From IMG/VR virus record IMGVR_UViG_3300036766_002285: a DNA stretch of 64,000 nt; one strand, written 5' to 3'. The stretch's first letter is position 1, and each line of letters begins with the position of its first letter. A program made the translations under genes and the position numbers. The notes under the pieces are model-generated. The model ran no database searches, was not told where the DNA came from, and worked only from the letters and a program-made list of their open reading frames with translations. Origin of the DNA: an uncultured virus (IMG/VR IMGVR_UViG_3300036766_002285) (Duplodnaviria; Heunggongvirae; Uroviricota; Caudoviricetes). Below, piece after piece: positions 4,163-56,146 of the stretch.

Positions 4163-4480
4163 TTATCCCTCATCTTCGTATTCAAATTCATAATTAATAA
4201 ATAAGGTGCCGGGCCCGTTTCCCTCATCATCTCGAGAAGGTATTAATGTAGTCCCATCATCAAGGACAATCATCCATGAAAGACCATAGTCCCCCCAACC
4301 AAGCCAACTATAATTTCGCTCATCGTCTGTTAATGACCTAACACTCACAATGGTACGCCCAACTAAACAGCCATATTCAGACTGAACTGCTTCTTGCCGT
4401 TCCTTTTGGTCTTGCGCTCTCGCTTGCTCATCTGCTAGATCTATTGCCCGCGCTTGTTCTGGGGTTCGATTATTTGACAT
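4163..4480 (-). CDS. Phage-type hypothetical protein
   Basis: SD AAGGAGG; motif IVLDDGTTLIPSRDDEGNGPG. Confidence 0.6.
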   Translation of the reverse strand: MSNNRTPEQARAIDLADEQARAQDQKERQEAVQSEYGCLVGRTIVSVRSLTDDERNYSWLGWGDYGLSWMIVLDDGTTLIPSRDDEGNGPGTLFINYEFEYEDEG

Positions 4481-4943
4481 GAATAGCCTCCTTTTTTATT
4501 TTAATATTAATTTGTTTAAAGATATTTTTAGAAATTAGAGCAGCAAAGTGTATATTTATATTTAGTCTAATTACTTTATGTGCTTTCGCACAAGTTCGTA
4601 AAGCACCAGTAAAATCTGCACCGCTTAAATCCACCCCATCGAGCTGTGTTTCACGTAAATCGGCACCAATAAAGGATGCACCTTTAAGCTTTGTATCTGT
4701 TAAATTTGCACCCTTAAGACACGCCCCAGCAAAGTTGGCATTTTCTAGATTTGCACAAGTAAAGTTAGCTTTATATAAATTGGCGCATCTAAAGTCAGTA
4801 TGGGCACGGTTCGTGCCAACTAATTGTGCTCTGGCAAAATCAGCATTTTTTAGCGTCAACGAGCTTAGATCGGCATTTTCCAAACTACTATTGGTTACAA
4901 TTTTTGTAAAGTCCGGTGCTAAAAGTGGCGCTACTTGGTTCAT
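4470..4943 (-). CDS. Pentapeptide-repeat protein with degenerate C-terminus (lacks MPDG tail)
   Basis: A(D/N)L/Fxx repeats to about residue 115, then an unrelated AT-rich tail. Confidence 0.8.
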   Translation of the reverse strand: MNQVAPLLAPDFTKIVTNSSLENADLSSLTLKNADFARAQLVGTNRAHTDFRCANLYKANFTCANLENANFAGACLKGANLTDTKLKGASFIGADLRETQLDGVDLSGADFTGALRTCAKAHKVIRLNINIHFAALISKNIFKQINIKIKKEAIHVK

Positions 4944-5109
4944 ATTTTCTCCCTATAACAGTTACAGTCAAGGCGAATTTTGTAACTCAAATAGGCCTGC
5001 GTTTTTACCATTTTTAATATAGAAAAATATATTTGGTTTATTTTAGGCGCCCTTATGGTAACATTATACTTATTTCACATAATCACCTAACGGTGGAGAG
5101 GGGCTCAAA

Positions 5110-6594
5110 ATGGACCCTAAAGTAGAAAAAGCTCGACTGTTAAATGTTAAGCCCATTGAAGAAGAAGTACTTGTGGAAGCACAAGAAATTCTAAAAATGG
5201 CTCGAACAAAAGTTGCATTAGGACCTAGCGTCATTACTTCAATCGTTGTTGGCTTATGCCACTTCGCCTGGACCTATGAGATAGATACTTTGGCTGTAAA
5301 ACTTGCTGGTGACGGTAATGCTATGCTAATGGTAAACCCCGCGTTCTTAATTGGATTAGGAAAAACCATTGATGCAAATAACCAACCGGTGTTTAGCCGC
5401 GACTTGGCCGCTAATAAAGCATTATTTGCTCTCACTCATGAGGCGTACCACTTGATGCTTGTGCACTTGTACGTAGATCCTGCTTTGAGAAGAAACCCAA
5501 ACTGGACCACTGCTACAGAAGCTTGTATCAATTATCGCATCACCAAGCATTTACATTTACCACTCATCGCTTGGGTTGGAGACGAAAGTAAAGACAAGCC
5601 AGGTACATGGGAAGACGGTTGTGGCGTATATCCTGACAGCGTGTTTACGCGCTGGCAAAAAGCTATGAAAGACGCCAATATGGCAAGTGTGTTGAAGAAA
5701 GAAGATTTCTTTGCCACTGACATAGGTTGTTTTTCTTATCTTGAGTCATGCCCTAAGCATATTCCTGCTCAACCTAGAGGTCAAAAAGGCATGGGCGACT
5801 GTGTTCACTCTAAGGATGATCAGCAGGGAGAGGGCGAAGGTCAAGCACCTCTTGATCCTAATGAAGTCGGAAAACTCATGGATCGTGTTCTGGAAGGCGC
5901 TATTCAAGCAGCCAAGCAAGGATACGGTGAGGGCGACGACGGTAGTGGAGCTGCTAAAGATGAAATTTTGTCTTGGGTTGATTCTTCACCAGAAGCATCA
6001 AAAATGTGGGGTGACCTGGGAGCAGGTACACTTCGCGGCGATACTTCGCACTCTACTAAATCAGATCTGTGGGAACGTTGGACAGCTGATGCGATAGCAT
6101 CACGCCTTGCTGATGGTACCAGATGGAAGTACAATAAAAAACTTCCATGGGACAGAAGGGTGTCTGCATCCGGACGCGAACCACGTAAGCATGGAAGTGT
6201 TTTCGTTGACGCATCTGGATCTATGGAACAAGCCTTTTTAGATAAAGTAGCGTTCATTATTAGTGATATCGAAAATATCGAAATTGAGTGGCACTCATTT
6301 GACGGCGAAGTTTGGCCGTTCAAAGCAGGTGAAGATATGCGAGGAGGCGGTGGAACGTCTTTTCAAATTATCGATGACCATATCAATGGAGAATCTCCTT
6401 CTTATGAAGGCGACGACGAACATGCCGAAGGCGACCAAGATGATGACTTCGTTTTAGTTATTACCGATGGTTATGCACCACATATTCAACCTCGAGAGAG
6501 CGATAAATGGCTCTGGTTGATTACACCTGGCGGAGATGGTTGGCCGTTAGATGCTGGTATGTCTTGTCGAGAAGTCGATATTGATAACGAGTAA
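5110..6594 (+). CDS. DUF2201-type metallopeptidase + VWA-like domain protein
   Basis: HEAYH zinc motif, acidic/Gly linker, MIDAS-like VDASGSM, GGGGT and VITDG. Confidence 0.8.
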   Translation: MDPKVEKARLLNVKPIEEEVLVEAQEILKMARTKVALGPSVITSIVVGLCHFAWTYEIDTLAVKLAGDGNAMLMVNPAFLIGLGKTIDANNQPVFSRDLAANKALFALTHEAYHLMLVHLYVDPALRRNPNWTTATEACINYRITKHLHLPLIAWVGDESKDKPGTWEDGCGVYPDSVFTRWQKAMKDANMASVLKKEDFFATDIGCFSYLESCPKHIPAQPRGQKGMGDCVHSKDDQQGEGEGQAPLDPNEVGKLMDRVLEGAIQAAKQGYGEGDDGSGAAKDEILSWVDSSPEASKMWGDLGAGTLRGDTSHSTKSDLWERWTADAIASRLADGTRWKYNKKLPWDRRVSASGREPRKHGSVFVDASGSMEQAFLDKVAFIISDIENIEIEWHSFDGEVWPFKAGEDMRGGGGTSFQIIDDHINGESPSYEGDDEHAEGDQDDDFVLVITDGYAPHIQPRESDKWLWLITPGGDGWPLDAGMSCREVDIDNE

Positions 6595-6595
6595 G

Positions 6596-6633
6596 AAAAA
6601 GCACCCTAGACACTTTGTCCTGGGTGCTTTTTT
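6596..6633 (+). terminator. Intrinsic terminator
   Basis: AAAAAGCACCC...GGGTGCTTTTTT immediately after the stop codon. Confidence 0.8.
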
Positions 6634-7850: not shown

Positions 7851-8429
7851 ATGAGCAGTACTATGGATAGACAAGATGTAATAGACGCAGTAGCAAACGG
7901 TTCTGGCCTCGTAAATGCAGACTTAACTAACATAAATTTAACTGGGATCTGTTTAGCTAATGTGAATTTATCAGGAGCGAAATTGTCCTATAAGGATTTG
8001 CGTGGTATAGATTTGTCCTGTGCAAACCTTGAGGGTGCTGATTTATCAGACGCCAAATTGTGGGTGTCCATGTTAAACAAAGCAATCTTTAAAAACGCCG
8101 ATCTTACTCGTGCAGAGTTTACTTTTGCCAAAATGTGTCAAACTAATCTAGAAGGCGCCACATTATCAGGCGCAGATCTCAAAGGAGCTAACCTAAGTGG
8201 TGCAAATCTTAGATGTGCTAATATAACTAGAATAACTATAACAGGATGCGACCTTAGTGACGCTGATCTAACTGGTGCCAATATGTCTGGAAAAGATCAG
8301 TATAGCATTTCTTTAGAAGGAGTTCTCTTGTGTAGAGCAAATCTTACAAATTGCTACACCGAAGGCACCGATCTTACTAAAGCAGACTTAACTGGTACCA
8401 TCATGCCAAACGGATCCGTCCATGAATAA
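7851..8429 (+). CDS. Pentapeptide-repeat protein (array 1)
   Basis: Rfr repeats, tail TIMPNGSVHE, SD AAGGAG. Confidence 0.9.
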   Translation: MSSTMDRQDVIDAVANGSGLVNADLTNINLTGICLANVNLSGAKLSYKDLRGIDLSCANLEGADLSDAKLWVSMLNKAIFKNADLTRAEFTFAKMCQTNLEGATLSGADLKGANLSGANLRCANITRITITGCDLSDADLTGANMSGKDQYSISLEGVLLCRANLTNCYTEGTDLTKADLTGTIMPNGSVHE

Positions 8430-8446
8430 TTACAATTGGTATTTGT

Positions 8447-9106
8447 ATGGCTCGTAAACTTATCCGTACTCAAGTCCTAAAAATTATAGAAGCTCAAGGT
8501 ACTTTAGCTGAAACTAACCTATCCGGAGTTGATTTACACGGTATTAACTTCTCTGGCACCAGTTTGGCTTTTGCTAATTTATTAGAAGCCAACCTGGCAG
8601 GTGCTGATCTTTCTCACTGTGATTTAGTAAAAGCAACCCTTTATGAAGCAATTTTGACGAGGGCTGACCTGTCACACTCGAACTTATCTGGCGCTATGCT
8701 GGCCTATATAACCGGTGATAAAGCTAACTTTTTTGAAGCAAACCTAACCAAAACACACATGGCCGGTGCTGACTGCCGCGGTGCTAACTTAACTGGAATG
8801 ACGGCTTGTGGTTATGGCGTAGGTGGTGCAACCACAGAAGATGGATATGTGTTCGCTCATCACGCAGATTTTTCGTACGCCGATCTGTCTCGTGCAGATT
8901 TTAGAGGCGCCGATTTTAGAGGAGCACATTTTATTAGCGCTAATCTAATTAACGCCGATCTAGAAAATGCAGATTTAACAGACGTAAAGTTTACAAATGC
9001 CGATTTAAGTTGCGCAAATTTGCTTAAAGCTCAGGTAAAAATGAAACAACTAAAAACCGCCGTCCTGACCAGGACTATTATGCCAGACGGTAGTATCCAT
9101 GTATAA
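8447..9106 (+). CDS. Pentapeptide-repeat protein (array 1)
   Basis: Rfr repeats, loop ACGYGVGGATTEDGY, tail TIMPDGSIHV. Confidence 0.9.
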   Translation: MARKLIRTQVLKIIEAQGTLAETNLSGVDLHGINFSGTSLAFANLLEANLAGADLSHCDLVKATLYEAILTRADLSHSNLSGAMLAYITGDKANFFEANLTKTHMAGADCRGANLTGMTACGYGVGGATTEDGYVFAHHADFSYADLSRADFRGADFRGAHFISANLINADLENADLTDVKFTNADLSCANLLKAQVKMKQLKTAVLTRTIMPDGSIHV

Positions 9107-9121
9107 TAGAGGAATTACATT

Positions 9122-9784
9122 ATGACTCAATCACTCACAAGACCCCAAGTGCTAGAAGCTATAGAAGCTAAACAGAGCTTAGCAGATATTTTGTTAAACA
9201 ATGCAGATTTACATGACATAGATTTTAAAGGTATCAGCTTAGCTTCTGCCAGTCTCGTGGGGGCCAATTTACAAAATGTTAACATGTCGCATTGTGATCT
9301 AACTAGAATTAATTTCAGAGAGGCTAATCTCACTTGTGCAGATCTATCCTACACCCTTCTAGCCGGAAGCAGATTCTTTAACGTACAGGCCGAGGAAATA
9401 AATTTGGCTGGCGCCAATCTTACTAAAACAGACATTTTTTCCGGCATTTGGCACCATGCAAATCTATCAAATATCATTATGTGCGGACCTTCTATTAAAA
9501 AATATCCTGATCTTCAGTACAATACTTCTTGCTCTCATGCAGATTTAAAAGAAGCTAATATGATTAATGCTGATATGAGAAATGTGTATTTTGGCGGCGT
9601 AAATTTCAGTGAAGCTAATTTAACAAAAAGTGATTTACAGGGATCCGATTTCACGTATGCATGTTTCAATAACACAATACTTGAAGATGCGAACCTGTTT
9701 GAAACAAAAATAGATTTAGCACAACTAAAAACCGCTGTTCTGACCAGAACTATTATGCCAGACGGTAGTATTCATGGCTCGTAA
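9122..9784 (+). CDS. Pentapeptide-repeat protein (array 1)
   Basis: Rfr repeats, tail TIMPDGSIHGS. Confidence 0.9.
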   Translation: MTQSLTRPQVLEAIEAKQSLADILLNNADLHDIDFKGISLASASLVGANLQNVNMSHCDLTRINFREANLTCADLSYTLLAGSRFFNVQAEEINLAGANLTKTDIFSGIWHHANLSNIIMCGPSIKKYPDLQYNTSCSHADLKEANMINADMRNVYFGGVNFSEANLTKSDLQGSDFTYACFNNTILEDANLFETKIDLAQLKTAVLTRTIMPDGSIHGS

Positions 9785-10418
9785 ACTTATCCGTACTCAA
9801 GTCCTAAAAATTATAGAAGCTCAAGGTACTTTAGCTAATACTGATTTAAGAGATATTGATTTGCATGGAATTGATTTTAATGAAATTAGTTTATCTGAAG
9901 CCTACTTCTATCATGCGGATCTCAGCTATGCCAATCTCTCCAATTGCGATTTAACTAGAGCTGTATTAAGTTTTGTTACGGCAAACGACGCCAATTTCTC
10001 GAACAGCTCTCTAGCTGGAACGTCTATATCCAATATCACGGCCGAAAACGCCAATTTCTCTTCCGCCAATTTAACTAGAAGTTTTACATCAGATAGTTCT
10101 CTTCAATGTGCGAATTTTAGTTATGCTAATTTAGCAGGTACTGGGTTTGAGGATTTTTATACGAGTTTTTTTCACGTAGATTTAGCAGGTAGCAATTTTA
10201 CCTGCGCTGATATGCGTGGTATATTTATACAGAAAACGAATTTGGCAGATGCTAACCTAAGTAGTGCTGATTTGAGCCACTCTCAACTAGAAGACGTCTT
10301 GTTTGCTGGAGCAAATCTTTACAACTGTGATTTTACGGCCGCTACTTTAACAGACACCTATTTCGACGATGTCGTATTGACCGGAACTATCATGCCAGAT
10401 GGCGTACTACATGTCTAG
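9774..10418 (+). CDS. Pentapeptide-repeat protein (array 1)
   Basis: Rfr repeats; first 63 nt identical to the 8447 gene. Confidence 0.9.
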   Translation: MARKLIRTQVLKIIEAQGTLANTDLRDIDLHGIDFNEISLSEAYFYHADLSYANLSNCDLTRAVLSFVTANDANFSNSSLAGTSISNITAENANFSSANLTRSFTSDSSLQCANFSYANLAGTGFEDFYTSFFHVDLAGSNFTCADMRGIFIQKTNLADANLSSADLSHSQLEDVLFAGANLYNCDFTAATLTDTYFDDVVLTGTIMPDGVLHV

Positions 10419-11115
10419 ATCTAGGATTCTTCATTACCCCGTTCTTACACGCCAAGAAGTGCAAGAAGTGGCTAAAATTAAAGGAAGTCTCGCTGAAACT
10501 AATTTAGGTGCCCTCGATCTTAGTAATATAGATTTCTCTGGTATGGATTTTTCTGATGCCATATTGAGCAGAGCTAACCTTCGAGGCGCTAACTTATCCG
10601 GCTGTGATCTAACTAGAACTTTTCTATGGTCAACAGTAGCAACGGGTACCAATTTCGAAAAATGTTCTCTATCAGGTTCCCACATGGATGAGATACAAGC
10701 CATGGGTGCGAATTTTCATGAAGCGAATTTAACCAGAGCTTCTTTACAAAAAGCTGATCTTTCCGGCGCTGATTTTTCACTTTCTAATATATCCGGGTCT
10801 GGAGATTTTTCTGCAATATTTACTAGGGCAAACCTGGCCAATGCTAATTTTAGAGCAGCCAATATGTATGGTGCAACTCTTAATGATACTATATTGACTG
10901 GCGCTGACTTAAGTTTCGCTGATTTAAGATTCGCTGATTTACAAGGCGCCAGGCTCAGACATGCTAATCTAGAAAATACTAATCTACTGGGGGCAAAATT
11001 TACAAATGCAAATCTTGGAGATGCAAATCTAGCAGGTGCCAAAATTGACTTGAGCCAACTTCGTTGGGCTGCCTTGATTGGTACTATTATGCCAGACGGA
11101 ACAATCCATTCATAA
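10411..11115 (+). CDS. Pentapeptide-repeat protein (array 1)
   Basis: Rfr repeats; start placed at the ATG overlapping the upstream tail. Confidence 0.9.
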   Translation: MSRSRILHYPVLTRQEVQEVAKIKGSLAETNLGALDLSNIDFSGMDFSDAILSRANLRGANLSGCDLTRTFLWSTVATGTNFEKCSLSGSHMDEIQAMGANFHEANLTRASLQKADLSGADFSLSNISGSGDFSAIFTRANLANANFRAANMYGATLNDTILTGADLSFADLRFADLQGARLRHANLENTNLLGAKFTNANLGDANLAGAKIDLSQLRWAALIGTIMPDGTIHS

Positions 11116-11184
11116 AACTATATCTTGTTTGACCGTATAGACAGCGCGCTTATAGTTTATTATTACAAAAAGGGAGATATTAAT

Positions 11185-11841
11185 ATGAGTAAAGCAAAAT
11201 TAACCAGAAATGATGTTATTAGACATACAAAAGACCATAATAGTCTACAAGGCTCAGATCTTGCAGACCTGGATCTCCACGAACTGGATTTTTTCGCAAT
11301 GAATTTAAAAGACACTAATCTATACGGTGCTAACCTAAGAGGAGCCCGCCTTTGTTGGGCGGAGCTGGACCGTGCTGATTTACGGGTGGCAAATCTTGTT
11401 GGTGCAAATTTAAATGAGGCTAGAATGGAAAATGTAAAACTATGTAAAACTAATCTAACAGACGCTAGGCTAGATGAGGCCCGTCTTCAAGATGCTGATT
11501 TAACCAGAGCAATTCTAACGGGTGCAAACTTATCAAGTGCATGGTTGATGCGCGCGGATCTAACAGCTGCTGATCTAACTAGAGCTTATATGTCGGGGGC
11601 TAATTTAGAGGAAGCTATCCTCATAGACGCTAAGCTAGCTGGATTCGGGGATCATGAAGGTACCAACACAGAGATGTGGCAGACTAATCTAAGGCGCGCA
11701 GATTTAACCAGAGCTGACATGCGTGGAGTTAACTTAAGCAATGCTGATTTAACAGGTGCTATTGTAAAAGATACCAACTTTGAAAATGTTATCTGGTTCC
11801 AAACCACGATGCCTGACGGGACTAAGCGTTCCAATAATTAA
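11185..11841 (+). CDS. Pentapeptide-repeat protein (array 1)
   Basis: Rfr repeats; SD AGGGAG; promoter TTGACC-N16-TATAGT at 11129-11156. Confidence 0.9.
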   Translation: MSKAKLTRNDVIRHTKDHNSLQGSDLADLDLHELDFFAMNLKDTNLYGANLRGARLCWAELDRADLRVANLVGANLNEARMENVKLCKTNLTDARLDEARLQDADLTRAILTGANLSSAWLMRADLTAADLTRAYMSGANLEEAILIDAKLAGFGDHEGTNTEMWQTNLRRADLTRADMRGVNLSNADLTGAIVKDTNFENVIWFQTTMPDGTKRSNN

Positions 11842-14916: not shown

Positions 14917-16533
14917 CGTTCCTTTTGAGTGTCGTTTAGTGACACTCTAGGAGTTCTCCCTTGCGAAAGAACAGTTCTTGTTTTAGGCCACCATTGCTGG
15001 TTGCTTCAAGATTGACGCTTCATCGGCCACAACATTTATATCTAATAAAGATACTTTAGTTTTACGTAGGCCTTCACGTCCAGACTCCGGACTACTCCCG
15101 GAGTTTACTATTATATTGCTTGACTGCCTAGGTAACCCTAGTTTAGCCAAATTCACTGCTGCATTAAGATCTCTATTCAAGACATTAGGGCAAACAGTGC
15201 ATTTATATATACGCTCTTGGCGTGGTAGTTTGGCTTTCACTGATCCACACTTTGAACATGTTTTACTAGAGGGATAGAACCGGTCAGCTATAACTAAAGT
15301 TGAGCCATACCAGAGCGTCTTATATTTAAGTTGCCTGTAAAATTCTCCAAGACCGGCATCTGCCATCTGTTTTCCAAGCAGACCACTTTGTATTATCCCT
15401 GCGACATATAAGCCTTCAATAACTATTGTGTCAAAGTTTTTGGCAATATTCGTTGTAGTTTTGTGGTTCAGATCCAGACGACAATTAGCAGGTTTTGCAT
15501 GAATACGTCTGTTCCTTTTTTGTTCTTTAATATATCGATTTGATGCTTTAGTACCAGGTATTTTATTATGGCTTTGTTTGCGTGACAAGTTCTTGTTTGA
15601 ACGTCTAAGCAGTTTAGCCTGTTTATCTGTATTTCGTGGATTTTCAGTTCTAAAAAGCTCTTCACCAGTTGGGCTAGCTCCGATATGCAAAGTATTTATA
15701 CCCACATCAATACCTATAATGCGTTTGGCTTTGCGTGGTGTAGGTATATCACGATCTACTTCTACAGTAAAAGACACAAACCATCTGTTTTGTTTATGAG
15801 AAAGAGTCGCAGCTAGAATGCGGGCGCTACAGTTTTCGATACGCCGAGTTAGCTTGCGGGTACTCTCGTAGGTGCGGATTTGACCTATAACTGGAAGAAG
15901 TATATGGTGACGATCTACAGTTACCCCGATGTTACCTGTGGTGAACCGAACACTCTCATGTTGGCCGCGCTTATGATATTTAGGAAATCCGACCGGTTTA
16001 CCTTTCCTGTTAAAGAATCTATATGGTTTGATACCCCTAAAGATAACCGTTTAGTGCCATCTGAGTAGGCTTCCTTAGAGTTTTCTCTCCACCAGGGGGC
16101 AACCAAATCTTTCTTTGTGTTCCAAATCTTTCTTAAAGCATAATGTGAAGTCGGAAAATATGGGGTCAGTGCACTTTTCGCCACACCGGAACTAATCTCA
16201 GCTTTTCTTAAATCATTGGTAGCTTTCATACAGCCAAGAAGATAATTGTAAACATACCTGGAAGCTCCCACATGAGAGTTACAAGCCCGCGCTTGAGTTG
16301 GAGTAGGGTCAAGTGCGAACTTGTAAGCCTGATGGATTATGCTCATAAAGGTTTAATTTGTTCAGGCATGTCTCGTACAAGATCATCATTCCGTTCATCA
16401 CGCAACCTACCTGCCGCTGTAGTCAATGTTCCACCTACTTCACTAGTCCAATCTGGATGTTCATACATCTAGTATCGGCACTAGATGCCCTTTGATGGCA
16501 CTCGTTGCCGCTGAACCTTATACTGCTCGCAAT
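14917..16533 (-). mobile_element. Degenerate IS607-family element (tnpA remnant + frameshifted tnpB)
   Basis: Right junction GGAACGG, GG at both junctions, no target duplication; tnpA remnant motifs RASSAD, TSEVGGTL, DDLVRDM at ~16343-16500; removal restores the PRP frame. Confidence 0.85.
14983..16346 (-). pseudogene. tnpB: IS607 TnpB, frameshifted near 16000
   Basis: N-terminus QAYKFALDPT...WWRENSKEAY; second frame KGKPVGFPKY...; RuvC GIDVG, IVIEGL, NRDLNAA and zinc finger intact. Confidence 0.9.
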
Positions 16534-16999
16534 CCTTTAGATCGGCTTTTGTTAGATCTGTGTCTTCAAAATATGTATTACTAAGATTAGCTCCTCTCAA
16601 ATTTGCTTTACAAAAAGTAACCTTAGTAGCGACGCCATTAGATAAGTCAGCATATTGTAGATTCGTACCACTCAAGTCAGCACCTTCAAGGTCACAGCTA
16701 AGAATAGCGCCCGAAAGATTTGCTCCAGTAATCTCCGCGTCCGTAAGCTCCGCATCTTCTAAGTTAGCATCTCTAAGATCAGCACCACACAGCGTAGCGC
16801 ACCCCAACCACGCATCTGTTAGGTTAGCGCCTCGCAAATTGGCACCCCGCATATCAGCTCCAAAAAAATCTGCCCCAACTAGGATCATACCGCTTAGATC
16901 TATATAACTTAAATTTTTATTGGAAAGATTCAGATGTTCATCCTTATTAGCAGCAATTTGTTTTTCAACTTGCTTACGAGTATAATGTTTAGGTGCCAT
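16534..16999 (-). pseudogene. Pentapeptide-repeat protein, 5' part interrupted by IS607
   Basis: Rfr repeats stop abruptly at the insertion; ORF reads into the IS to 16481. Confidence 0.85.
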
Positions 17000-17028
17000 T
17001 CATATCACCTCCGCTGCAATAATTTTTA

Positions 17029-17199
17029 TTATTTATGGTTCTTGCGGCGGTTTTCCATTGATTCTTTGACAGACTCAGGCAATCCTTCACCTTCAGCAGC
17101 CTTAACCCGAAATCTGGGGTAGTTAGGATCTTTAGCATTTTTAAGAAACTTGGCACTTCGTTTTTCTTCTTTACGTTTGGCTCTATCTTCTTTGTTCAT
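17029..17199 (-). CDS. 56-aa basic hypothetical protein (not in ORF track)
   Basis: SD AGGAG; MNKEDRAKRKEEKRSAKFLKNAKDPNYPRFRVKAAEGEGLPESVKESMENRRKNHK; tandem paralog adjacent. Confidence 0.75.
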   Translation of the reverse strand: MNKEDRAKRKEEKRSAKFLKNAKDPNYPRFRVKAAEGEGLPESVKESMENRRKNHK

Positions 17200-17217
17200 T
17201 ATAATACTCCTGTTCTA

Positions 17218-17382
17218 TTATTTCTGATTCTTGTAGCGGTTCTCCATTGATTACTTAGTGGCCTCGGACAGGCCTTTACCGTCAGCAGCTTTAACCAGAA
17301 ATCTAGGATCGTTCTCGAATTTGTCAATGACCTTAGCATGTTGTTTTTCTTCTTTACGTTTGGCTCTATCTTCTTTATTCAT
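17218..17382 (-). pseudogene. Tandem paralog of 17029..17199 with premature TAA at 17251-17253
   Basis: MNKEDRAKRKEEKQH...GLSEATK*SMENRYKNQK*; the paralog has GAA at that codon. Confidence 0.7.
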
Positions 17383-17507
17383 TGCAATTCCCACAGTTGC
17401 TGTACACTATTGGCGCGCCGCTCGCCAAGTGCGTAATACTAGCCTCAAATAAATTTGTACGGTACATAAACAGCACAATTCCTATAATATTAAAAGTTTT
17501 AGATAAA

Positions 17508-18242
17508 TCAAGTGTGTCTGGTACCATCTGGCATAATAGCGCCTTTAAGGTCGCATCCGGGGAAATTTGTGGTCATATTGGTAGCTCCAAAAAAGTTAGC
17601 ATTACGCATAATAGTATTTGTAAATAGTATTTCTTGTAAATTAGCACAACTGAAGTTTGCATTGCTCAAGTCAGCATTTGTGAAATTAATACCGTTTAAG
17701 TCAGTTAATTCTAGATTAGCACCCGTAAAATCAGCGTTAGAGCAATTACAGTTGAATAACACCGTACCCCGCATATCAGCAAAACTCAAATTTGCAGAAG
17801 CTAACTCAGTAGTGTGTAACTGCGTTTTATATGTATCTCCCATTCCAGCTAGATTAGCTCTCTCTAGATTTGCATTAGTCAGATTTGCTTTTGTGAGGCC
17901 ACATCTTGTTAAATTAGCACCCGTAAAATTAACATGTTCGGCCGCTACGAAAGACAAGTTACAACCAGCAAGGGAAGCGTGTGATAGGTCAGCATATGCT
18001 AAAGTAGCTCTATATAATGTACTTTTTGTTAAATCACAAGAATTAAGATTAGCACCGTAAAGATTAGCAAACATTAAATCGCAGTTTGAGATATTCATGT
18101 TAGATAAATCCATATGCTCAAGATCAATTCCATACAGACCTTCATTGGTTCCAAGAACTGTATCCCGTAACTCAAGCCCAGCTAGACTGCCTTTAGTTTT
18201 TATTATTTCTAGAATATCAGATCTCAGAATTCTGTGTAGCAT
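17508..18242 (-). CDS. Pentapeptide-repeat protein (array 2)
   Basis: Rfr repeats, tail AIMPDGTRHT, SD GAGGAGG. Confidence 0.9.
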   Translation of the reverse strand: MLHRILRSDILEIIKTKGSLAGLELRDTVLGTNEGLYGIDLEHMDLSNMNISNCDLMFANLYGANLNSCDLTKSTLYRATLAYADLSHASLAGCNLSFVAAEHVNFTGANLTRCGLTKANLTNANLERANLAGMGDTYKTQLHTTELASANLSFADMRGTVLFNCNCSNADFTGANLELTDLNGINFTNADLSNANFSCANLQEILFTNTIMRNANFFGATNMTTNFPGCDLKGAIMPDGTRHT

Positions 18243-18260
18243 GCTAACCTCCTCGGGCCA

Positions 18261-21468: not shown

Positions 21469-21482
21469 ACTGTAGTTTTCCC

Positions 21483-28357: not shown

Positions 28358-28374
28358 GTACAATCGGTGTTTCT

Positions 28375-29043: not shown

Positions 29044-29084
29044 TTAGTCTAAAGGTGTCACTCTAATGGTAATCATAATATTTA

Positions 29085-29744: not shown

Positions 29745-29753
29745 TTTACTTGT

Positions 29754-42016: not shown

Positions 42017-42971
42017 AAGTAATCTATCTAGAGAACAAGTATTAGCAAGACATGCGACCGGAAAAGGTCTCACCAAAATGGATTTATGCGGGCTAAACTT
42101 GGCTCATTGTTCTTTGAATAAAGCGGATTTCCATGAGTCTCTAATGAACGATATTGTTTTCGTGGAGTCTAATCTTGAATATGCTGATTTTTCGCACACT
42201 AAATTAAACAGTTCTAATTTTGATAACACCCATTTAATCCACGCAAATTTTAAAGGATCTGAGCTAGCTAAAAGTACTTTTATTCGCGCACGAGCAGATC
42301 ATATGAATTGCATGGGCGCAGATCTGACCTCAGCCAATTTATCTGGAGCAATTATGATAGGAGCTAGTTTTGTAGATGCCGAAATGCCTCACGTCAATTT
42401 AACTAGAGTTGAGGCCACACATGCAGCTTTTACTGGCGCTAACTTAACTGATGCAAATATAGCTGGATTCGGAAAATATTCTGCTTATTTTTATCAGGTC
42501 TATTTTATTAAGACCAATCTAACAAGAGCTGACCTGCAAGGAGCTTTCTTATTTGAAGCAAGCTTCAATCAGGCTAACCTTACCTATGTAAATCTAACTG
42601 GTGCTAATTTAATACGTGCTGACCTTTCTCAAGCAAATATGTCACGAGCTAATCTTGAACGCGCATATATGCAAGGCGCTAACTTGTTTGGTGTTAACTT
42701 GTCTATGGCAAACTTTAATGGGGCGAATTTGAGAGATGCGGATTTAAGGTTCACTAATTTATGCAATTGTGTCTTTACGAATTCAAGTCTAAGTGATGCT
42801 GACTTACGAGGTGCTAATTTGTATGGTGCTGACTTTACTAATACAAACTTAAGCGGTGCTGACTTTACCGGTAGCCAATGTGAAAATACTTGTTGGGACG
42901 GCGCCCTATTTGAAAATACTATTATGTCTGATGGGACTATAAGAAACAGCGCCGACAAGGACGAAAGCTAA
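42009..42971 (+). CDS. Long pentapeptide-repeat protein (array 5)
   Basis: Start inside the upstream tail after GGGAG; tail TIMSDG. Confidence 0.9.
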   Translation: MSKSNLSREQVLARHATGKGLTKMDLCGLNLAHCSLNKADFHESLMNDIVFVESNLEYADFSHTKLNSSNFDNTHLIHANFKGSELAKSTFIRARADHMNCMGADLTSANLSGAIMIGASFVDAEMPHVNLTRVEATHAAFTGANLTDANIAGFGKYSAYFYQVYFIKTNLTRADLQGAFLFEASFNQANLTYVNLTGANLIRADLSQANMSRANLERAYMQGANLFGVNLSMANFNGANLRDADLRFTNLCNCVFTNSSLSDADLRGANLYGADFTNTNLSGADFTGSQCENTCWDGALFENTIMSDGTIRNSADKDES

Positions 42972-42972
42972 T

Positions 42973-43257
42973 ATGCGTAGTATTATAGTAACCACTGTGA
43001 AAAATAATGAGACGTTTATCTACACTTTTGAGGTAGACAGCTGGATGACTAGCTGTACAGTGCAGCGGATCGATGTAGATACAGAAACATTTGCTAGTAT
43101 CTTTAATACTATAGAAATACACTCGTCAACAAGCATACCTACGGATGTTAAAATCGGTCAAAATTTCACATTTGAGGTATTGGCTGGCTACAATAATGAT
43201 CGACCGCACGTTGTGTTAGCTGGTTCAGTCGTTTCTGTTGATCAAAAAGAGCTGTAA
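42973..43257 (+). CDS. Hypothetical beta-rich protein within PRP operon
   Basis: Abuts both neighbours (1-2 nt gaps). Confidence 0.6.
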   Translation: MRSIIVTTVKNNETFIYTFEVDSWMTSCTVQRIDVDTETFASIFNTIEIHSSTSIPTDVKIGQNFTFEVLAGYNNDRPHVVLAGSVVSVDQKEL

Positions 43258-43259
43258 AC

Positions 43260-43715
43260 GTGGGTGCGCTAAATAGACAAGAAGTCATAGCAAGACTACA
43301 AAACAGAGATACCCTAGCTAGAGCCGACTTAACTTGTGTGGATTTGAGCGATTTAGATCTAAGAGAAGTTAATCTGTATCAAACAAACCTTAAGAACGCT
43401 AACTTGAACAGATCTGACCTATCCCATAGTGTGCTGTGGAGAGCGAGCCTTAATAAAGCAACATTGCATGGAACCAATCTATCATATACCATTTTAAGCG
43501 GGGCATATCTTCATAATGCCGAACTACCCCATGCGAATCTAAAATATGCAAACTTAACCGACGCTAATTTATGTGGGGCTGATTTAATGTACGCAGACCT
43601 CTCATATGCAGACCTGTCAGGTGCTGATTTAACTGGAGCCCATATATTTGGAACAATATTTGATAATACTATTTTGACTAACACGCTTATGACTAATGGC
43701 CTGGTCCTAGAGTAG
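43260..43715 (+). CDS. Pentapeptide-repeat protein (array 5)
   Basis: Rfr repeats, tail TLMTNG. Confidence 0.9.
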   Translation: MGALNRQEVIARLQNRDTLARADLTCVDLSDLDLREVNLYQTNLKNANLNRSDLSHSVLWRASLNKATLHGTNLSYTILSGAYLHNAELPHANLKYANLTDANLCGADLMYADLSYADLSGADLTGAHIFGTIFDNTILTNTLMTNGLVLE

Positions 43716-43779
43716 TAAATGCCTCCAAACTAAAGTCGCACAATTGGCCCCTATAGTAGACTTATATCAAAGGAGCAGC

Positions 43780-44841
43780 ATGACTAACCAGGATAGTAAA
43801 TGTAAAAATATTGAGATTCTAGTATCGCAAGGCTCAGATCTTGCTGGGTCAAAATTGGCCGGTGCTAATTTGTTTAAAGCGAACCTTAAAGGTGCGAAGT
43901 TGTCGAAATCTGATCTAAAAGAGATAAACCTTGAAAAAGCTAACCTAAAATATGCTGACTTAAGTGGCTGTGACCTGCGTGGTGCTGATTTAAGAGAAGC
44001 TAACTTTAAGTGCGCAAACCTATCTTTTGCTAATTTAACCAATGCAGTTTTAGATAATGCCTATATGGACCAAGCGGATTTAAGAGGAGCTATGTTTGTT
44101 GATGCCGCTTTGAGTGCGGTATCTTTTATAGGCGCCAAACTGCAACAGGCCAACTTTGAGGGAGCTGATTTGAGAAACGCAAATTTTTTTCACACAGACC
44201 TGACAAATGTAACCTTGACCGGTGCTGACTTGTTGGGGGCAACGTTGTGCGGGGCTAATTTAGCTCATTGTGGGCTCGATGGCGTATATTTTTATGACAC
44301 TCGTCTTGACAAAACAGATTTTAAAAATCTTGATTTACGTAAAGTATCTTTTGAACGTGCTTCAGTTAAAAATGCAGATTTTAGCTGTGCAAATCTTAGA
44401 GGCGTGAATCTTTACAAAGCAAATCTTGAGGGTTCTCTCTTTATTAACGCTAACTTGGACATTGCTACTCTTATGAGTGCTCAAATGATGGGTGCGAATC
44501 TGACCGGTGCTACCCTTCGACAAGCGGACTTGCGGGGCGCAGACCTAAGTAAAGCAAATCTAAATGTAGCTGATATGTTTGGAGCAAACCTTGCTAGTGT
44601 TGTGTTGGCGGGAGCTAATCTTAGATCTGCAAACTTAGAGGAGGCTGATTTAACTAATGTCGATCTAAAAGGTGCTAATCTTAGATGCGCTAATTTACAA
44701 AAAGCTATTTGTATTGAAACAGATTTCAGTGGTGCTGATTTGACTGGAGCAAATTTATTAGGCGCGAACGCTACTTTGGCAAACTGTAGGGGTGCTATTC
44801 TCGATAGTGTTATTTTGCCAGACGGAACTGTCTATAAATAG
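43780..44841 (+). CDS. Long pentapeptide-repeat protein (array 5)
   Basis: Rfr repeats, SD AAGGAG before ATG 43780, tail VILPDG. Confidence 0.9.
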   Translation: MTNQDSKCKNIEILVSQGSDLAGSKLAGANLFKANLKGAKLSKSDLKEINLEKANLKYADLSGCDLRGADLREANFKCANLSFANLTNAVLDNAYMDQADLRGAMFVDAALSAVSFIGAKLQQANFEGADLRNANFFHTDLTNVTLTGADLLGATLCGANLAHCGLDGVYFYDTRLDKTDFKNLDLRKVSFERASVKNADFSCANLRGVNLYKANLEGSLFINANLDIATLMSAQMMGANLTGATLRQADLRGADLSKANLNVADMFGANLASVVLAGANLRSANLEEADLTNVDLKGANLRCANLQKAICIETDFSGADLTGANLLGANATLANCRGAILDSVILPDGTVYK

Positions 44842-45534: not shown

Positions 45535-46035
45535 TTATTTTTTAGTAGCTTGTTGCAGATGAAGGCAGAAAGCTTTTTGCTTATCTGAAAGAATGACATC
45601 TGTTAGATTTGTCATTTGTAAACTTGTGTTATATAATAGCGCTGAATCTAGATTTGCCGAAGTTAAATTTGCTGCACACAAATTAGCGTTACTTAAATCA
45701 GCTTCAGTTAAATTCGCTCCTGTAAGGTCAGCGCCAAAAAAATTAGCAACACACAGCAGTGCTTTGGTCAAGTTTGCTGAAGTCAAGATGGCGAGCGTTA
45801 AATTAGCACAGTTCAACCTAGCTCCCGTTAGGTTTACGTTAGTTAAATTAGCGTAGCTAAGATTTACACGATATAAGTCTGCACCCTCTAAATTTGCTCC
45901 TCTAAAATCCGCATAAGAGAGATCTCTTTCTGCCCATGATTTGTCCCATGATAGTTCCTGTGTGTTACCCTTACGATCAATATATTTCACATTTTCTTTT
46001 AATTTAGGAAGAGCATGCTTTTTATTTTTTGTCAT
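45535..46035 (-). CDS. Pentapeptide-repeat protein, second N-cap type
   Basis: [14 protein letters not shown] cap then Rfr repeats; no MPDG tail. Confidence 0.9.
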
Positions 46036-49537: not shown

Positions 49538-50068
49538 TTAGGGCGCATCATATTTTGGAGTCGGCATGACCGAGCCGTCTGGCATAACTGTATCGTAACA
49601 GCGTGCGCCAGATATGTTTGTTTTATTAAGATTTGCTTTTAAAAACGATGCATGCTCGACATCTATATTTCTAAGATCAGCAAACTCTAGATTTGCACCC
49701 TCAAAATCAGCAAATGGAGCATATGAACCTGTAAGGGTGGCTCTGGTTAAATTAGCTCCACGAAAACAAGCGCTGCTAAGAGTTGTTCCTTGCAATATAG
49801 CGTCAGTGAGATCGCAGTTGGAAAGATCTGCTGCATGCAAGTCAGCATAAGTGAGGTCAGCGCCCCGAAGGTTAGCTCCACGCAGACCGGCACCGCTCAG
49901 GTATGCTCCATTTAAATTAGCGCCAGACAGATCAGCACCATCGAGATCAAGGCCGCACGTAATACTATTGTCTTCAATATTGTCTCGCCAAATAATATCT
50001 TCACCCCACTGTAAAATAGCGAGTTCACCGTCGCAAGTGACATATTCAATCTTAGGCCATTGCCTCAT
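49538..50068 (-). CDS. Pentapeptide-repeat protein, second N-cap type
   Basis: EYVTCDG..LQWGE cap, Rfr repeats, tail TVMPDGSV. Confidence 0.9.
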   Translation of the reverse strand: MRQWPKIEYVTCDGELAILQWGEDIIWRDNIEDNSITCGLDLDGADLSGANLNGAYLSGAGLRGANLRGADLTYADLHAADLSNCDLTDAILQGTTLSSACFRGANLTRATLTGSYAPFADFEGANLEFADLRNIDVEHASFLKANLNKTNISGARCYDTVMPDGSVMPTPKYDAP

Positions 50069-52575: not shown

Positions 52576-52580
52576 GGTTT

Positions 52581-54418: not shown

Positions 54419-54721
54419 TTAGCCGGCGATATATTTTTTGGTAATTGCCCATGTGATATAGTGTATTGTTTGACCTTCTGCTTTTGCTATCCAGTAAATA
54501 GCGTCGGCTGCTAGCATATCAAAATCGCTAAGGCGTTGCATTGGTACGAATACGTGTTGGCCGCTAATGGTATCTCTATAACCTTCGCGGAGATCATTTT
54601 TACGCTCAAGAACCCAACGAGGGTTGGCTTGTAGATATGTAGGAATGGTAGTGACATCCATAGTGGCTACAATATCAGATAAACTAAGACCTTTTATATA
54701 TACTTCCTGTGATTCGTTCAT
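54419..54721 (-). CDS. Hypothetical protein
   Basis: ORF; start uncertain. Confidence 0.55.
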   Translation of the reverse strand: MNESQEVYIKGLSLSDIVATMDVTTIPTYLQANPRWVLERKNDLREGYRDTISGQHVFVPMQRLSDFDMLAADAIYWIAKAEGQTIHYITWAITKKYIAG

Positions 54722-54803
54722 TGTGTAGTCTTCTTTGTGCAAGTTGATATCTTATTATCATACTATATGCGCGAGCGTGACTGTATCAAATAGATATCTA
54801 GTT

Positions 54804-55235
54804 TTAGATGTCTGGTGCGGGTTTTCTGACCATATCATCAGCCAGCGGGGGCATCATTTCTAAAGAACCACTAAATATGCTATCGTCAGGCATCATTGTT
54901 TTTTTAAATATGGCTCCGTTTGTATTAACTTTTTTTGTAAGTGCACACTCAAAAGTTACCCCGGTTAGATTTGTATTAGCCAAATTAGCATAAGAAAGAT
55001 CCGTCCAGCTAAAATCTGCGTAACTTAAATCAGAGCCCGCGAAGTTAACACCTCTGAGATCTGCATAATAAAAATATGTGCCTTTAAGGCAAGCACCATG
55101 AAAATCAGCATGTTTTAAGCAAGCTCCGCCTAAATCTATACCTGCCCACGATTCTCCATATATCAAAACTAGTGAGTTACCGTCTCTATCAATAAAATGA
55201 ATGTTTTGCGAGTTTATTTCACCGGTATCACTCAT
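54804..55235 (-). CDS. Pentapeptide-repeat protein, second N-cap type
   Basis: HFIDRDG..LIYGESW cap; start inside the upstream tail after GGGAG. Confidence 0.88.
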   Translation of the reverse strand: MSDTGEINSQNIHFIDRDGNSLVLIYGESWAGIDLGGACLKHADFHGACLKGTYFYYADLRGVNFAGSDLSYADFSWTDLSYANLANTNLTGVTFECALTKKVNTNGAIFKKTMMPDDSIFSGSLEMMPPLADDMVRKPAPDI

Positions 55236-55446
55236 GAATACTCCCATCTGGCATGGTAGCGCCACTAAAGTTTGTTCCATGACATTGAGTCTCATTAATA
55301 TTTGCTAGATACAGATTAGCACCCGATAAATCTGCTCCTTGCAAATTAGCGCCTTTTAGATCAATATTCTCCCAATCTTCGCCCCATTTTAGAACAGCTT
55401 TTTTACCGTCACGAGTTGTGAATTTAACATCATTACGCTCAATCAT
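55228..55446 (-). CDS. Minimal pentapeptide-repeat protein (72 aa), second N-cap type
   Basis: KFTTRDG..LKWGEDW cap, ~7 repeats, full tail ATMPDGSIHE, SD AGGAG. Confidence 0.85.
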   Translation of the reverse strand: MIERNDVKFTTRDGKKAVLKWGEDWENIDLKGANLQGADLSGANLYLANINETQCHGTNFSGATMPDGSIHE

Positions 55447-55477
55447 GGATAATCTCCTCTAATATTTTTATTTGCAT

Positions 55478-56146
55478 TTATTCGTGTATTGTGCCATCGG
55501 GCATTGTGGCACCTCTAAGATCTGCGTCATTGAAAATACAACCCGTAATAATAGCAGAAGTTAGATTAGCTTGTCGCAAGTCAGCTCCACTAAAATCCGC
55601 TTTAGTTAAATTAGCCCCAGACAGTTGTATTCCTCTAAGAAAACTGTTTGTAAGATTTGCATTAGTTAGATTTGCTTCCTGCAGCACAGCTGCAAATTTA
55701 TCCAATCCCTCAAGGTTAGCACCTTGAAGATTCGCACCACTTAAGTCCGCGCCTACCCCACTTACTCTTGTCATATTAGTGTAACTTAAATTACAGCCTG
55801 CCATTTTAGTTTCTTTCAAGGTTGCCCCGGCCAAAGTTGCTCTGCAACATGTAACTTTTTGAAGTTTTGCATAACTTAGATCTGCACAAGTGAGATCTGC
55901 TTCAGTCAAATTAGCACCTTCAAATTCAGTTCCATATAAAGAAGCATAACTTAAATCAGTTTTTGTTAAATTGGTAAATCGTAGATTTGCCCAACTGGCA
56001 CTAACTTCACGTAAAACAGTTTTAGACAAATCTAAGTTACTCAGGTCGGTTGGGGCTAGATTTAGTTTTGATTGAAGTTTTACTAAAACTTCGTCGCGAG
56101 TAAGTTTGATTACGATTTCTTTAGCGACCGGCGGTTGTTTGCTCAT
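55478..56146 (-). CDS. Pentapeptide-repeat protein
   Basis: Rfr repeats, tail ATMPDGTIHE, SD AGGAG. Confidence 0.9.
   Translation of the reverse strand: MSKQPPVAKEIVIKLTRDEVLVKLQSKLNLAPTDLSNLDLSKTVLREVSASWANLRFTNLTKTDLSYASLYGTEFEGANLTEADLTCADLSYAKLQKVTCCRATLAGATLKETKMAGCNLSYTNMTRVSGVGADLSGANLQGANLEGLDKFAAVLQEANLTNANLTNSFLRGIQLSGANLTKADFSGADLRQANLTSAIITGCIFNDADLRGATMPDGTIHE

Follow-up and report, generated by a model that had tools for sequence, protein, structure and literature searches.

Thirty-four divergent pentapeptide-repeat proteins, mostly in tandem arrays, on a probable megaphage, a candidate binder repertoire

Why a single element would carry thirty-four strongly different versions of one small repeat protein is the question raised by this locus, which lies in a stretch of 64,000 nucleotides (the window) from the IMG/VR record of an uncultured virus. 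A first-pass annotation, made from the sequence without database searches, had described a maintained and diversified arsenal of cytoplasmic DNA mimics or binders in a phage-like segment. The best explanation, which we put forward tentatively, is a lineage-specific expansion of a small cytoplasmic pentapeptide-repeat protein (PRP) that would serve as a binder or decoy repertoire; the element that carries it is most likely a huge phage whose host resembles a cyanobacterium.

In a Pfam scan of the window, 33 of the 77 non-nested open reading frames of at least 80 amino acids scored above the PF00805 gathering cut-off of 20.2 bits, at 64-251 bits. A profile built from 23 core members matched 35 stop-to-stop segments, comprising these 33 frames, a mini-PRP of 72 aa (55228-55446, (-)) and a tail fragment of 35 aa (14831-14935, (-)). 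The PRP genes thus total 34 and occupy 21,642 nt, a share of 33.8% for the whole window (0.53 genes per kb) and of 41.9% for the interval 4470-56146, which reproduces the earlier estimate of about 34 genes filling a third of the window. For comparison, 120 cellular loci picked because they carry the C-terminal tail described below gave 110 matches in 1.21 Mb, and 80 IMG/VR loci, totalling 1.13 Mb, contained zero PRPs. Contigs built by a second assembler from the single run that contains this DNA, a DNA run, reproduce the arrays with zero differences and an even depth of about 41; they are not independent data, because the same reads were used. The seven PRPs scanned against PADLOC models matched no family.

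The genes are grouped as six same-strand arrays and three singletons, and the arrays were found where the first-pass annotation had put them. Array A (7851..11841, (+)) consists of six tandem genes, all six matching PF00805, at 7851-8429, 8447-9106, 9122-9784, 9774-10418, 10411-11115 and 11185-11841, with junction gaps of 17, 15, -11, -8 and 69 nt. Array B (16481..22851, (-)) contains nine genes, again all matching PF00805, at 16481-16999 (truncated), 17508-18242, 18261-18917, 18910-19572, 19553-20146, 20127-20804, 20797-21468, 21483-22130 and 22123-22851, with gaps of 18, -8, -20, -20, -8, 14 and -8 nt. Five PF00805 genes form Array C (27058..30401, (+)), at 27058-27714, 27707-28357, 28375-29043, 29085-29744 and 29754-30401, and three, identified by PF00805 and the family profile, form Array D (30965..32913, (+)), at 30965-31570, which has a CTG start with a strong AAGGAGA ahead of it, 31563-32213 and 32206-32913. 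Array E (40780..44841, (+)) holds five PF00805 genes, at 40780-41406, 41399-42016, 42009-42971, 43260-43715 and 43744-44841, the last being the longest member with 365 aa; a non-PRP frame of 94 aa lies within it at 42973-43257. The triplet at 54804..56146 (-) comprises 54804-55235 (143 aa), the mini-PRP and 55478-56146 (222 aa). All three singletons are on the (-) strand: 4470..4943 (157 aa; PF00805, 1.2e-24) is basic, with a pI of 9.4; 45535..46035 (166 aa), also basic, has a subfamily II N-terminus; and 49538..50068 (176 aa) has the same N-terminus (xxFxDRDG...LxWGEDW).

Across 23 tandem junctions, the gaps range from -20 to 69 nt, and 11 are exactly -8, an 8-nt overlap of stop and start. 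GGAG stands upstream of the first genes and, at overlaps, inside the D-G-S codons, where the following gene has both its ribosome-binding site and its ATG within the gene-end codons GAT-GGG-AGT ... CAT-GAG-TAA. The arrays are operon-like and translationally coupled.

The C-terminal tail that had been credited to 32 of the 34 proteins reaches that number only under a loose reading. The strict motif (T/A)x(M/L)PDG occurs within the last 30 aa of 22 genes, a looser regular expression takes in 28, and three further tails are degenerate by eye (LMTNG, ILPDG and MMPDD); the genes at 4470 and 45535 have no tail. At the DNA level, 13 copies of the tail-coding pattern were counted where 0.00 were expected. 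The exact pattern also turned up in cellular genomes, at 120 loci or more, of which 100 are from Cyanobacteriota, and always once per locus, and the tail was further seen in unrelated metagenomic PRPs, two of them with a hydrophobic N-terminal leader. As a signature of the repertoire the tail therefore fails, since it also ends dispersed, single cyanobacterial PRPs.

Near-complete intactness, by comparison with this claim, was borne out, with 33 of the 34 genes intact. The exception, 16481-16999, lost its tail to an IS605-type TnpB insertion at 14983..16346 (-) (PF07282, PF01385 and PF12323), which is split into two frames (14983-15777 and 15921-16346), sits inside the PRP gene and has a summed depth of 146-324, where the flanks have about 41. 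The orphan tail fragment, which ends in ...TTMPDGSIYSS and a stop and matches profile positions 189-212 (E 4.4e-6), is the severed 3' end of this gene. A crude hydropathy scan found no leader-like N-terminus common to the family, in agreement with the reported absence of signal peptides, and the family is probably cytoplasmic.

The paralogs are strongly diverged, as had been described, with a median pairwise identity of 38%, a maximum of 60% and a general range of 25-60%. In eight close pairs dN/dS is 0.13-0.33, values that are rough because dS is near saturation, and in a ninth pair dS is saturated. In-frame stops number 0, whereas each of the two alternative frames has many (18.4 and 24.5 per gene), and a frame of 217 codons would remain open by chance with a probability of 4e-7. 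Terminal branches carry about one substitution per site, yet 33 of the 34 frames are open. Codon use in the PRPs agrees with that of 20 other window genes (RSCU r=0.84). These results point to old paralogs kept by purifying selection, and the idea of a maintained family, with dN/dS not near 1, holds. Sequence exchange among the genes is also continuing: the 5' ends of the genes at 8447 and 9774 have 63 nt in common at 100% identity, and this patch and another of 56 nt at 93% connect genes that are otherwise 43% identical.

An AlphaFold model of 28375-29043, the one gene of the 34 that was folded, has a pLDDT of 94.2 and a pTM of 0.89, with beta-bridges every five residues and a single low-confidence loop at 121-135. 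It predicts the Rfr fold, a right-handed quadrilateral beta-helix, with one central loop. Fifty PDB entries match at E<=0.001, the top ones being PRP structures; the best are HetL (7e-15), the nearest solved structure, followed by Np275/276, QnrB1, AlbG and MfpA. The only helix of at least four residues in the model spans 7-15, and none is present at the C-terminus. The predicted protein of the family begins with a cap helix at its N-terminus; five coils follow, then a central loop 13-20 residues long, another four coils and the MPDG cap.

Entropy averages 1.30 bits at inward and 2.31 bits at outward positions, and pooled omega is 0.15 for inward and 0.24 for outward codons. By face, with the faces assigned from a single predicted model and a single alignment, outward entropy is 3.01, 2.63, 2.14 and 1.48 bits (Kruskal-Wallis p=4e-11; face 0 versus face 3, p=2e-8). 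The conserved face bears conserved Thr-Arg/Lys pairs and the loop exit. In nine orthologous Nostocales PRPs, a small control of orthologs rather than paralogs, the asymmetry is absent (p=0.17). What is new here, as mapped on the model, is that outward residues are conserved on one face and hypervariable on another. Given the pooled outward omega, the variable face gives no sign of positive selection, and it may simply be unconstrained.

The contig that carries the window's own aminoacyl-tRNA synthetase is 616,293 bp long, above the 200 kb that defines huge phages. Besides the PRPs, the window encodes NAD ligase, SbcCD, endonuclease VII-like, HNH, RlaP and Fpg proteins, TrpRS, a fused CysRS-GluRS, IF3, tRNA-Ile(UAU), WhiB, SufB, SufA and an FtsH-like protein, and 25 of its 44 non-PRP frames have no Pfam family. 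The element is a probable megaphage, likely but unproven, because the window contains no capsid, portal or terminase gene; of the phage-like segment described earlier, the phage-type genes on a 616-kb contig stand and a virion gene within the window is missing. The host is most likely cyanobacterium-like. Should the element instead belong to an uncultured bacterium, as part of its chromosome or as a large plasmid, an unlikely reading that still carries weight, the PRPs would serve a cell function. Cyanobacteria carry many PRPs, both the tail and HetL are cyanobacterial, and the SufB, SufA, FtsH-like, WhiB, aminoacyl-tRNA synthetase and IF3 genes are of cell type. The lack of virion genes in 64 kb fits as well, as does the comparison with IMG/VR, where four window proteins have no close relative and a search for the tail pattern found no match. 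Against a cellular origin, the 64 kb lack ribosomal, metabolic and envelope genes, the TrpRS shares no more than 44% identity with those of 41 sampled cyanobacteria, and SufB is 59% identical to Firmicutes SufB. The aminoacyl-tRNA synthetase is an odd three-part fusion, the FtsH has no membrane part, and endonuclease VII-like, SbcCD, RlaP and HNH genes are typical phage sets. Moreover, such PRPs are single in cellular loci: of the 120 loci selected by the tail, 96 have one PRP and 7 have two.

The function of the PRPs can likewise be read in several ways. Following the Qnr/MfpA analogy, they would be mimics of B-DNA that bind gyrase, other topoisomerases, restriction enzymes or other DNA-binding defence enzymes. 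MfpA, QnrB1 and AlbG have the same fold, 31 of the 34 PRPs are acidic (median pI 5.1), and a central loop is present; loops matter in Qnr. Gyrase is also a known target, hit by phages with small proteins (PMC10886550). However, the two genes tested of the 34, 28375-29043 and 43744-44841, remain far under the cut-offs, with 62.2 and 92.2 bits for Qnr (NF033086, cut-off 240) and 43.1 and 92.3 bits for MfpA (NF000349, cut-off 360). Both also fall under the cut-off of 260 for HetL (NF047416), the nearest NCBIfam model, with 114.5 bits and, via three stretches of the 365-aa member, 258.6 bits. According to a review, C-terminal helices join Qnr and MfpA tail to tail into a dimer that forms a DNA-like rod, and this dimer helix is missing in the 28375-29043 model. 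Net charge is only -0.033 per residue, with outward charges of -1.3 to -2.4 per face; three PRPs are basic, and the conserved face carries conserved Arg/Lys. A single target such as gyrase would, in addition, leave 34 divergent copies unexplained. Since the Qnr/MfpA tests failed, acidity is moderate and Arg/Lys is conserved, DNA mimicry is one possibility among several rather than the best-supported one, and we consider it rather improbable. Of the proposed arsenal, selection, divergence and the probable cytoplasmic location stand, while DNA mimicry is neither supported nor excluded, and this applies equally to mimicry of the anti-restriction kind (Ocr/ArdA), in which a strongly acidic surface imitates the DNA backbone. 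A structural or scaffolding role in the virion or in an intracellular phage compartment appears very improbable: tail spikes and fibres often contain beta-helices, BFVD gives weak matches (E >0.01) to right-handed beta-helix and tail-spike proteins, and the conserved face could be an assembly interface, but the PRPs are small and stand alone without another domain, no structural genes are nearby, and the viral proteins that match best are stand-alone PRPs of phages, themselves uncharacterised. Scarcely credible, and already disfavoured, is neutral or selfish amplification, in which the arrays would be duplication debris without a function of their own. It would accommodate the tandem arrays, the recombination patches, the copy killed by the insertion and the lack of measurable positive selection, but it conflicts with the frames kept open over long branches, the low dN/dS, the conserved core positions, and the retained ribosome-binding sites and start/stop overlaps.

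All copies retain the rigid core of the beta-helix and a single conserved face, while the other faces, above all one, have diverged almost freely. Under the favoured explanation, a binder or decoy repertoire, the constant face would dock a shared partner or keep a shared activity, and during infection the variable faces would each recognise a different macromolecule of the host or of a rival element, such as a protein of defence or DNA handling. In its boldest form, which is doubtful at present, a megaphage panel of more than 34 rigid beta-helix binders, each with a constant docking face and a hypervariable recognition face, would neutralise many different host defence or DNA-handling proteins and so widen or secure host range. 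In function it would compare with a panel of germline antibodies or ankyrins and, if true, would be without precedent both for the pentapeptide-repeat scaffold and for phages.

PRP genes are scattered over hundreds of phage genomes, and none has a demonstrated phage role in the available portions of the literature searched. With 34 natural versions of a single scaffold, whose constant and variable surfaces are clearly split, the locus should make a pull-down or defence-system screen unusually informative; it also amounts to an existing library of a solenoid scaffold suited to design.

Compared with known systems, Qnr, MfpA, AlbG and McbG resemble the window PRPs in the Rfr fold and in acidity, but they are single-copy in their hosts, whereas the window PRPs form arrays. 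In Qnr and AlbG the helix is interrupted by a loop, as in the window, and loops affecting partner binding are described in the review. HetL (PDB 3DU1), Np275/Np276, Rfr23/Rfr32 and the Nostocales PRPs of about 220 aa are similar in length. Cyanobacterial PRPs share the C-terminal cap TIMPDG(S/T)IH, but their genes are dispersed singletons, and the Nostocales family differs in having no central loop, another N-terminus and no face asymmetry.

Tailed phages of several groups carry single stand-alone PRPs with the Rfr fold and 150-350 aa: mycobacteriophages, the Caulobacter phage RW group, Listeria P100-like phages, Staphylococcus phage Twort (ORF044) and the Rheinheimera Barba phages. A window PRP is matched by 403 of 50,697 phage records, all below 60% identity, with at most five matching places per record among the 30 matches listed, and BFVD matches reach 6e-15. 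In the accessible parts of the literature searched, a phage PRP gene appears only as an annotation entry or, once, as linked to quinolone resistance by family name. The window differs from these single genes in its 34 genes per 64 kb, coupled arrays, family-specific cap helix, loop and face asymmetry.

The locus adds a bacterial-virus example to the very large viruses that amplify repeat-protein families and, if the contig is confirmed as phage, brings one of the largest phage genomes into this pattern. Giant eukaryotic viruses carry multigene repeat-protein families (ankyrin/PRANC, F-box, MORN and BTB) in tandem, fast-diverging copies that take up a sizeable share of the genome and presumably bind host factors and influence the host range. 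The window resembles them as an amplified repeat scaffold in a large, probably viral, element, and it differs in its beta-helix scaffold and in its setting, a bacterial-type element with Shine-Dalgarno sites and coupled operons.

The window contains 118 ORFs of at least 80 aa at a G+C content of 0.39-0.47, and a Pfam scan of the 77 non-nested ORFs among these placed PF00805, the family of pentapeptide-repeat proteins (PRPs), above cut-off in 33. A profile built from 23 aligned core members (alignment A1) matches 35 stop-to-stop segments, comprising the 33 Pfam-positive ORFs and two minus-strand additions, namely a mini-PRP of 72 aa (55228-55446) and a tail fragment of 35 aa (14831-14935, profile positions 189-212). 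Since this fragment, a TnpB gene in two frames (14983-16346, minus strand) and a tail-less PRP gene (16481-16999, minus strand, profile positions 1-165) follow one another on the same strand with complementary profile ranges, the two PRP pieces are one gene interrupted by an IS605-type insertion. Gene 30965-31570 retains the family N-terminus and starts with CTG, with AAGGAGA upstream. In total, 34 PRP genes, 33 of them intact, occupy 21,642 nt or 33.8% of the window, which bears out the estimate of the first-pass annotation that some 34 such genes fill about a third of it; the array positions it assigned were recovered as well, and its view that nearly all copies are intact has the IS-cut gene as its single exception.

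The window sequence is present in one sediment-metagenome DNA run, with no RNA run listed as containing it, and a different assembler applied to this single public run reproduced the arrays with zero differences, a support that is not independent because both assemblies draw on the same reads. Read depth over the arrays is even (~41) and greater at the IS region only; apparent read joints were discounted, having sides of less than 30 nt or representing cross-matches between paralogs. The IS region itself (14983-16346) reaches 4-8 times the run depth of its flanks, indicating that the IS is multi-copy in the sample. The other IS605-type TnpB gene of the window lies at 62077-62901 (minus strand), and a 253-nt remnant at 1857-2109 is 81% like its 5' part. 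Within the 500-nt gap between genes 16481-16999 and 17508-18242, two 68-nt copies (17138-17205 and 17321-17388, 82% alike) possibly represent two small paralogous minus-strand genes.

Most members measure 200-240 aa; in A1 they have in common a helix at the N-terminus (LTRxxVLxIIA), the NLSNCDLT(R/K), ANFFEANLT(R/K) and ADxRG motifs, an insertion in the middle that varies in length, and the C-terminal tail; a second subfamily of five carries a distinct N-terminus, xxFxDRDG...LxWGEDW. The strong divergence noticed at first pass is evident in pairwise identities of 25-60% (median 38%), with the closest pairs often drawn from separate arrays. The tree is star-like, with terminal branches of median 1.0 change per column; arrays are not clades, and with 3 of 30 inner branches well supported it leaves the order of duplication unresolved. 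None of the 34 PRP frames contains a stop codon, compared with averages of 18.4 and 24.5 in the other two frames, and the chance of a 217-codon frame staying open at this composition is 4e-7. Nei-Gojobori estimates for nine close pairs gave dN of 0.31-0.65 and dS from 1.2 to saturation; the resulting dN/dS is 0.13-0.33 in eight pairs, dS being saturated in the ninth. A ratio near 1, the outcome that the first-pass annotation associated with neutral expansion, was thus not seen as far as saturated dS allows. Codon use is close to that of 20 other window genes (RSCU r=0.84; G+C 0.402 versus 0.433), and the PRP genes are residents of long standing. Recombination among the copies is ongoing: genes 8447 and 9774 (named by start coordinate) are 100% identical over their first 63 nt and 43% overall, and 8447 and 9122 have tails that match at 93% across 56 nt.

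Prediction of gene 28375-29043 with A1 yielded a confident model (pLDDT 94.2, pTM 0.89) consisting of a cap helix (residues 7-15), five coils (23-122), a low-confidence loop (121-135), four more coils and the tail. Its best solved match is HetL (3DU1, 7e-15), followed by designed solenoids, Np275/276 and then QnrB1, AlbG and MfpA, while among viral structures it best matches uncharacterised PRPs from Megaviridae and from uncultured tailed phages; a homodimer prediction scored 0.00 against a mark of 0.42. What was claimed at first pass about structure and evolution is upheld. Among the 23 aligned members, entropy is 1.30 bits at inward and 2.31 bits at outward positions (p=1.5e-13), as expected for the fold. 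The outward positions further differ among the four faces of the helix, at 3.01, 2.63, 2.14 and 1.48 bits (Kruskal-Wallis p=4e-11), with the same gradient in both protein halves, and the inward span is much smaller (1.65 to 1.06 bits). The motifs CDLT(R/K), ANLT(R/K) and ADxRG lie on the conserved face together with stacked glycines, the tail and the exit of the loop; this face is the least acidic of the four. Such asymmetry was absent from a small control of nine orthologous Nostocales PRPs (p=0.17). Pooled omega is 0.15 for inward and 0.24 for outward codons, which shows relaxed constraint on the variable surface and does not show positive selection. Judged on the predicted structure, the new feature is the division into a constant and a hypervariable face.

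At the 23 tandem junctions the gaps range from -20 to 69 nt, and 11 are exactly -8; there, the ATG of the next gene sits within the final ...CAT-GA(G/T)-TAA and a GGAG-like site within the tail codons GAT-GGG-AGT. Ordinary GGAG sites precede array-first genes and singletons. The arrays thus use bacterial-type, coupled translation, which argues for co-expression per array and against a eukaryotic virus. Scans for promoters (54 sites versus 46.0 +/- 6.6 in shuffles) and terminators (23 versus 15.6 +/- 3.3) were uninformative. An Rfam scan of the window matched tRNA alone; a tRNA-Ile with anticodon UAU lies at 1611-1685 (minus strand), and ATA is the codon used for 121 of 314 Ile residues that the PRP genes encode.

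The tail, reported at first pass in 32 of the 34 genes, is present in most of them, at lower counts: the strict form (T/A)x(M/L)PDG occurs in 22 and a looser form in 28, with three more degenerate by eye. Because the family alignment is too variable for locus searches, relatives were sought with a back-translated tail pattern. The exact pattern encoding TIMPDG(S/T)IH occurs 6 times in the window (0.00 expected), nowhere in IMG/VR and once per listed locus in at least 120 loci of species-representative genomes. The 120 loci listed belong to Cyanobacteriota (100), Chloroflexota (8) and other phyla (3), with 9 unnamed; by the family profile, 96 hold one PRP ORF, 7 hold two and 17 have none of at least 90 aa. 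IMPDGSEH also ends unrelated metagenomic PRPs, two of which have a hydrophobic N-terminal leader. The tail is thus an ordinary, widespread C-terminal cap, which links the family to cyanobacterial-type PRPs and does not define a new system.

The PRP expansion is real and unusual in degree. Its density is 0.53 genes per kb; by comparison, 110 hits in 1.21 Mb came from the listed set of 120 cellular loci, which were chosen for holding one such gene, and none from 80 IMG/VR loci (1.13 Mb). Four large cyanobacterial genomes (4.9-12 Mb) each contain at least 111-177 PF00805 stretches among 150 candidates scored, a count to be read against the 3-7 stretches contributed by each window PRP alone. Of the 50,697 records in a phage collection, 403 show a match to a PRP of the window, and none of the 30 of these listed has more than 5 matching places. 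Further paralogs probably lie outside the window, since P0004, a PRP of 228 aa that ends in this tail and is not encoded in the window, is recorded on a 616,293-bp contig, as is the fused aminoacyl-tRNA synthetase (aaRS) of the window. Querying protein collections with a single PRP or with the family profile recovered just generic PRPs and P0004; a search of 1.84 billion representatives gave 199,094 matches at E<=0.001, the 150 listed all being giant multi-repeat PRPs, and a metagenome scan with P0004 found nothing but unrelated short contigs.

Whether the replicon is a phage or a cell was weighed from the remaining genes; Pfam assigns no family to 25 of the 44 ORFs that are not PRPs. Besides the genes described individually in this text, the window encodes Fpg, NAD-dependent ligase, IF3, TrpRS, RlaP, SbcD/SbcC, a GmrSD_C-like nuclease, an endonuclease VII-like protein (PHROG 1035), an HNH-like protein and a deoxyribosyltransferase-like protein, and the whole mix suits a huge phage or some other giant extrachromosomal element more than it suits a chromosome. 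No phage record exceeds 39% identity to the ligase, TrpRS reaches at most 44% across 41 sampled cyanobacterial genomes (40 with a match), and SufB is 59% identical to Firmicutes SufB; these sequence distances lead away from every cell and phage sampled. In IMG/VR, the aaRS, SbcC and ligase have no close relative, and FtsH homologs are just 38-46% identical. The 64-kb window, however, contains no virion genes and no relatives were found in IMG/VR; overall, we regard it as fairly probable that the element is a phage. Hits of FtsH, SufB and TrpRS to 'phage' records were dropped as evidence of phage kinship, these being mostly records that resemble bacterial DNA. In MW495066.1, a record titled Microcystis phage MaAM05, the stretch 181419-222993 bears housekeeping annotations alone (mtnBCD, metG, purB, proS, lepA, ftsH, glgX, pgcA) and looks like bacterial chromosome.

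The fused aaRS (36375-40619, minus strand, 1,414 aa) joins an N-terminal part of ~450 aa with zero Pfam hits to a complete CysRS (452-902) and a complete GluRS (950-1407); just 4 other proteins (777-2475 aa) matched among 5.8 billion, and a 941-aa relative, annotated as a HAD-family hydrolase, is 66% identical across 29% of the query. SufB (50113-52602, minus strand) contains a LAGLIDADG-domain intein at residues ~341-595 between exteins 56-59% identical to Firmicutes SufB, and is followed by SufA (52581-52907). The FtsH-like AAA+/M41 protease (47505-49136, plus strand) matches its profile only from position 143 of 598 onwards; it is thus a soluble FtsH, devoid of the membrane-spanning N-terminus. 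A WhiB-like gene (61291-61659, plus strand; PF02467, 7.9e-11) adjoins SbcCD; WhiB proteins are characteristic of Actinobacteria and of the phages that infect them, a poor fit with a cyanobacterial host. Two side-by-side ORFan paralogs (245-733 and 735-1193, both minus strand) share a 60-nt stretch at 82% and match no family in Pfam, PHROGs or PADLOC. For two ORFans of the window, the ESM Atlas yielded nothing usable. ORF 14275-14772 includes a 66-nt tandem duplication (14355-14486, 88%) and a third partial copy (14625-14654).

Compared with known PRPs, both genes scanned against NCBIfam models, 28375-29043 and 43744-44841, scored below the cut-offs for Qnr (62 and 92 bits; cut-off 240), MfpA (43 and 92; 360) and HetL (114.5 and 258.6; 260), and PADLOC matched none of 7 PRPs scanned. 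Qnr and MfpA dimerise through a C-terminal helix, as a review describes (PMC10886550), and the predicted model of 28375-29043 lacks it. These sub-cut-off scores, the lack of a PADLOC match and the missing helix mark the window PRPs as a PRP family of their own. The DNA-mimic mechanism put forward at first pass is unproven and somewhat disfavoured by the missed Qnr and MfpA cut-offs of the two genes and the helix-less model; the proteins may work like Qnr or MfpA, a role not favoured above other binding roles. In the available portions of three papers, phage PRPs appear just as annotated single genes (PMC8093824, PMC10886550, PMC11053796), and the available part of a preprint ties a Qnr-type gene to quinolone resistance by family name (bioRxiv 10.64898/2026.05.02.722434). 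The literature searched, which did not extend to subscription journals or bioRxiv supplements, contained no expansion of PRP genes in any phage. The expansion can be compared with the multigene families of ankyrin type in giant viruses of eukaryotes.
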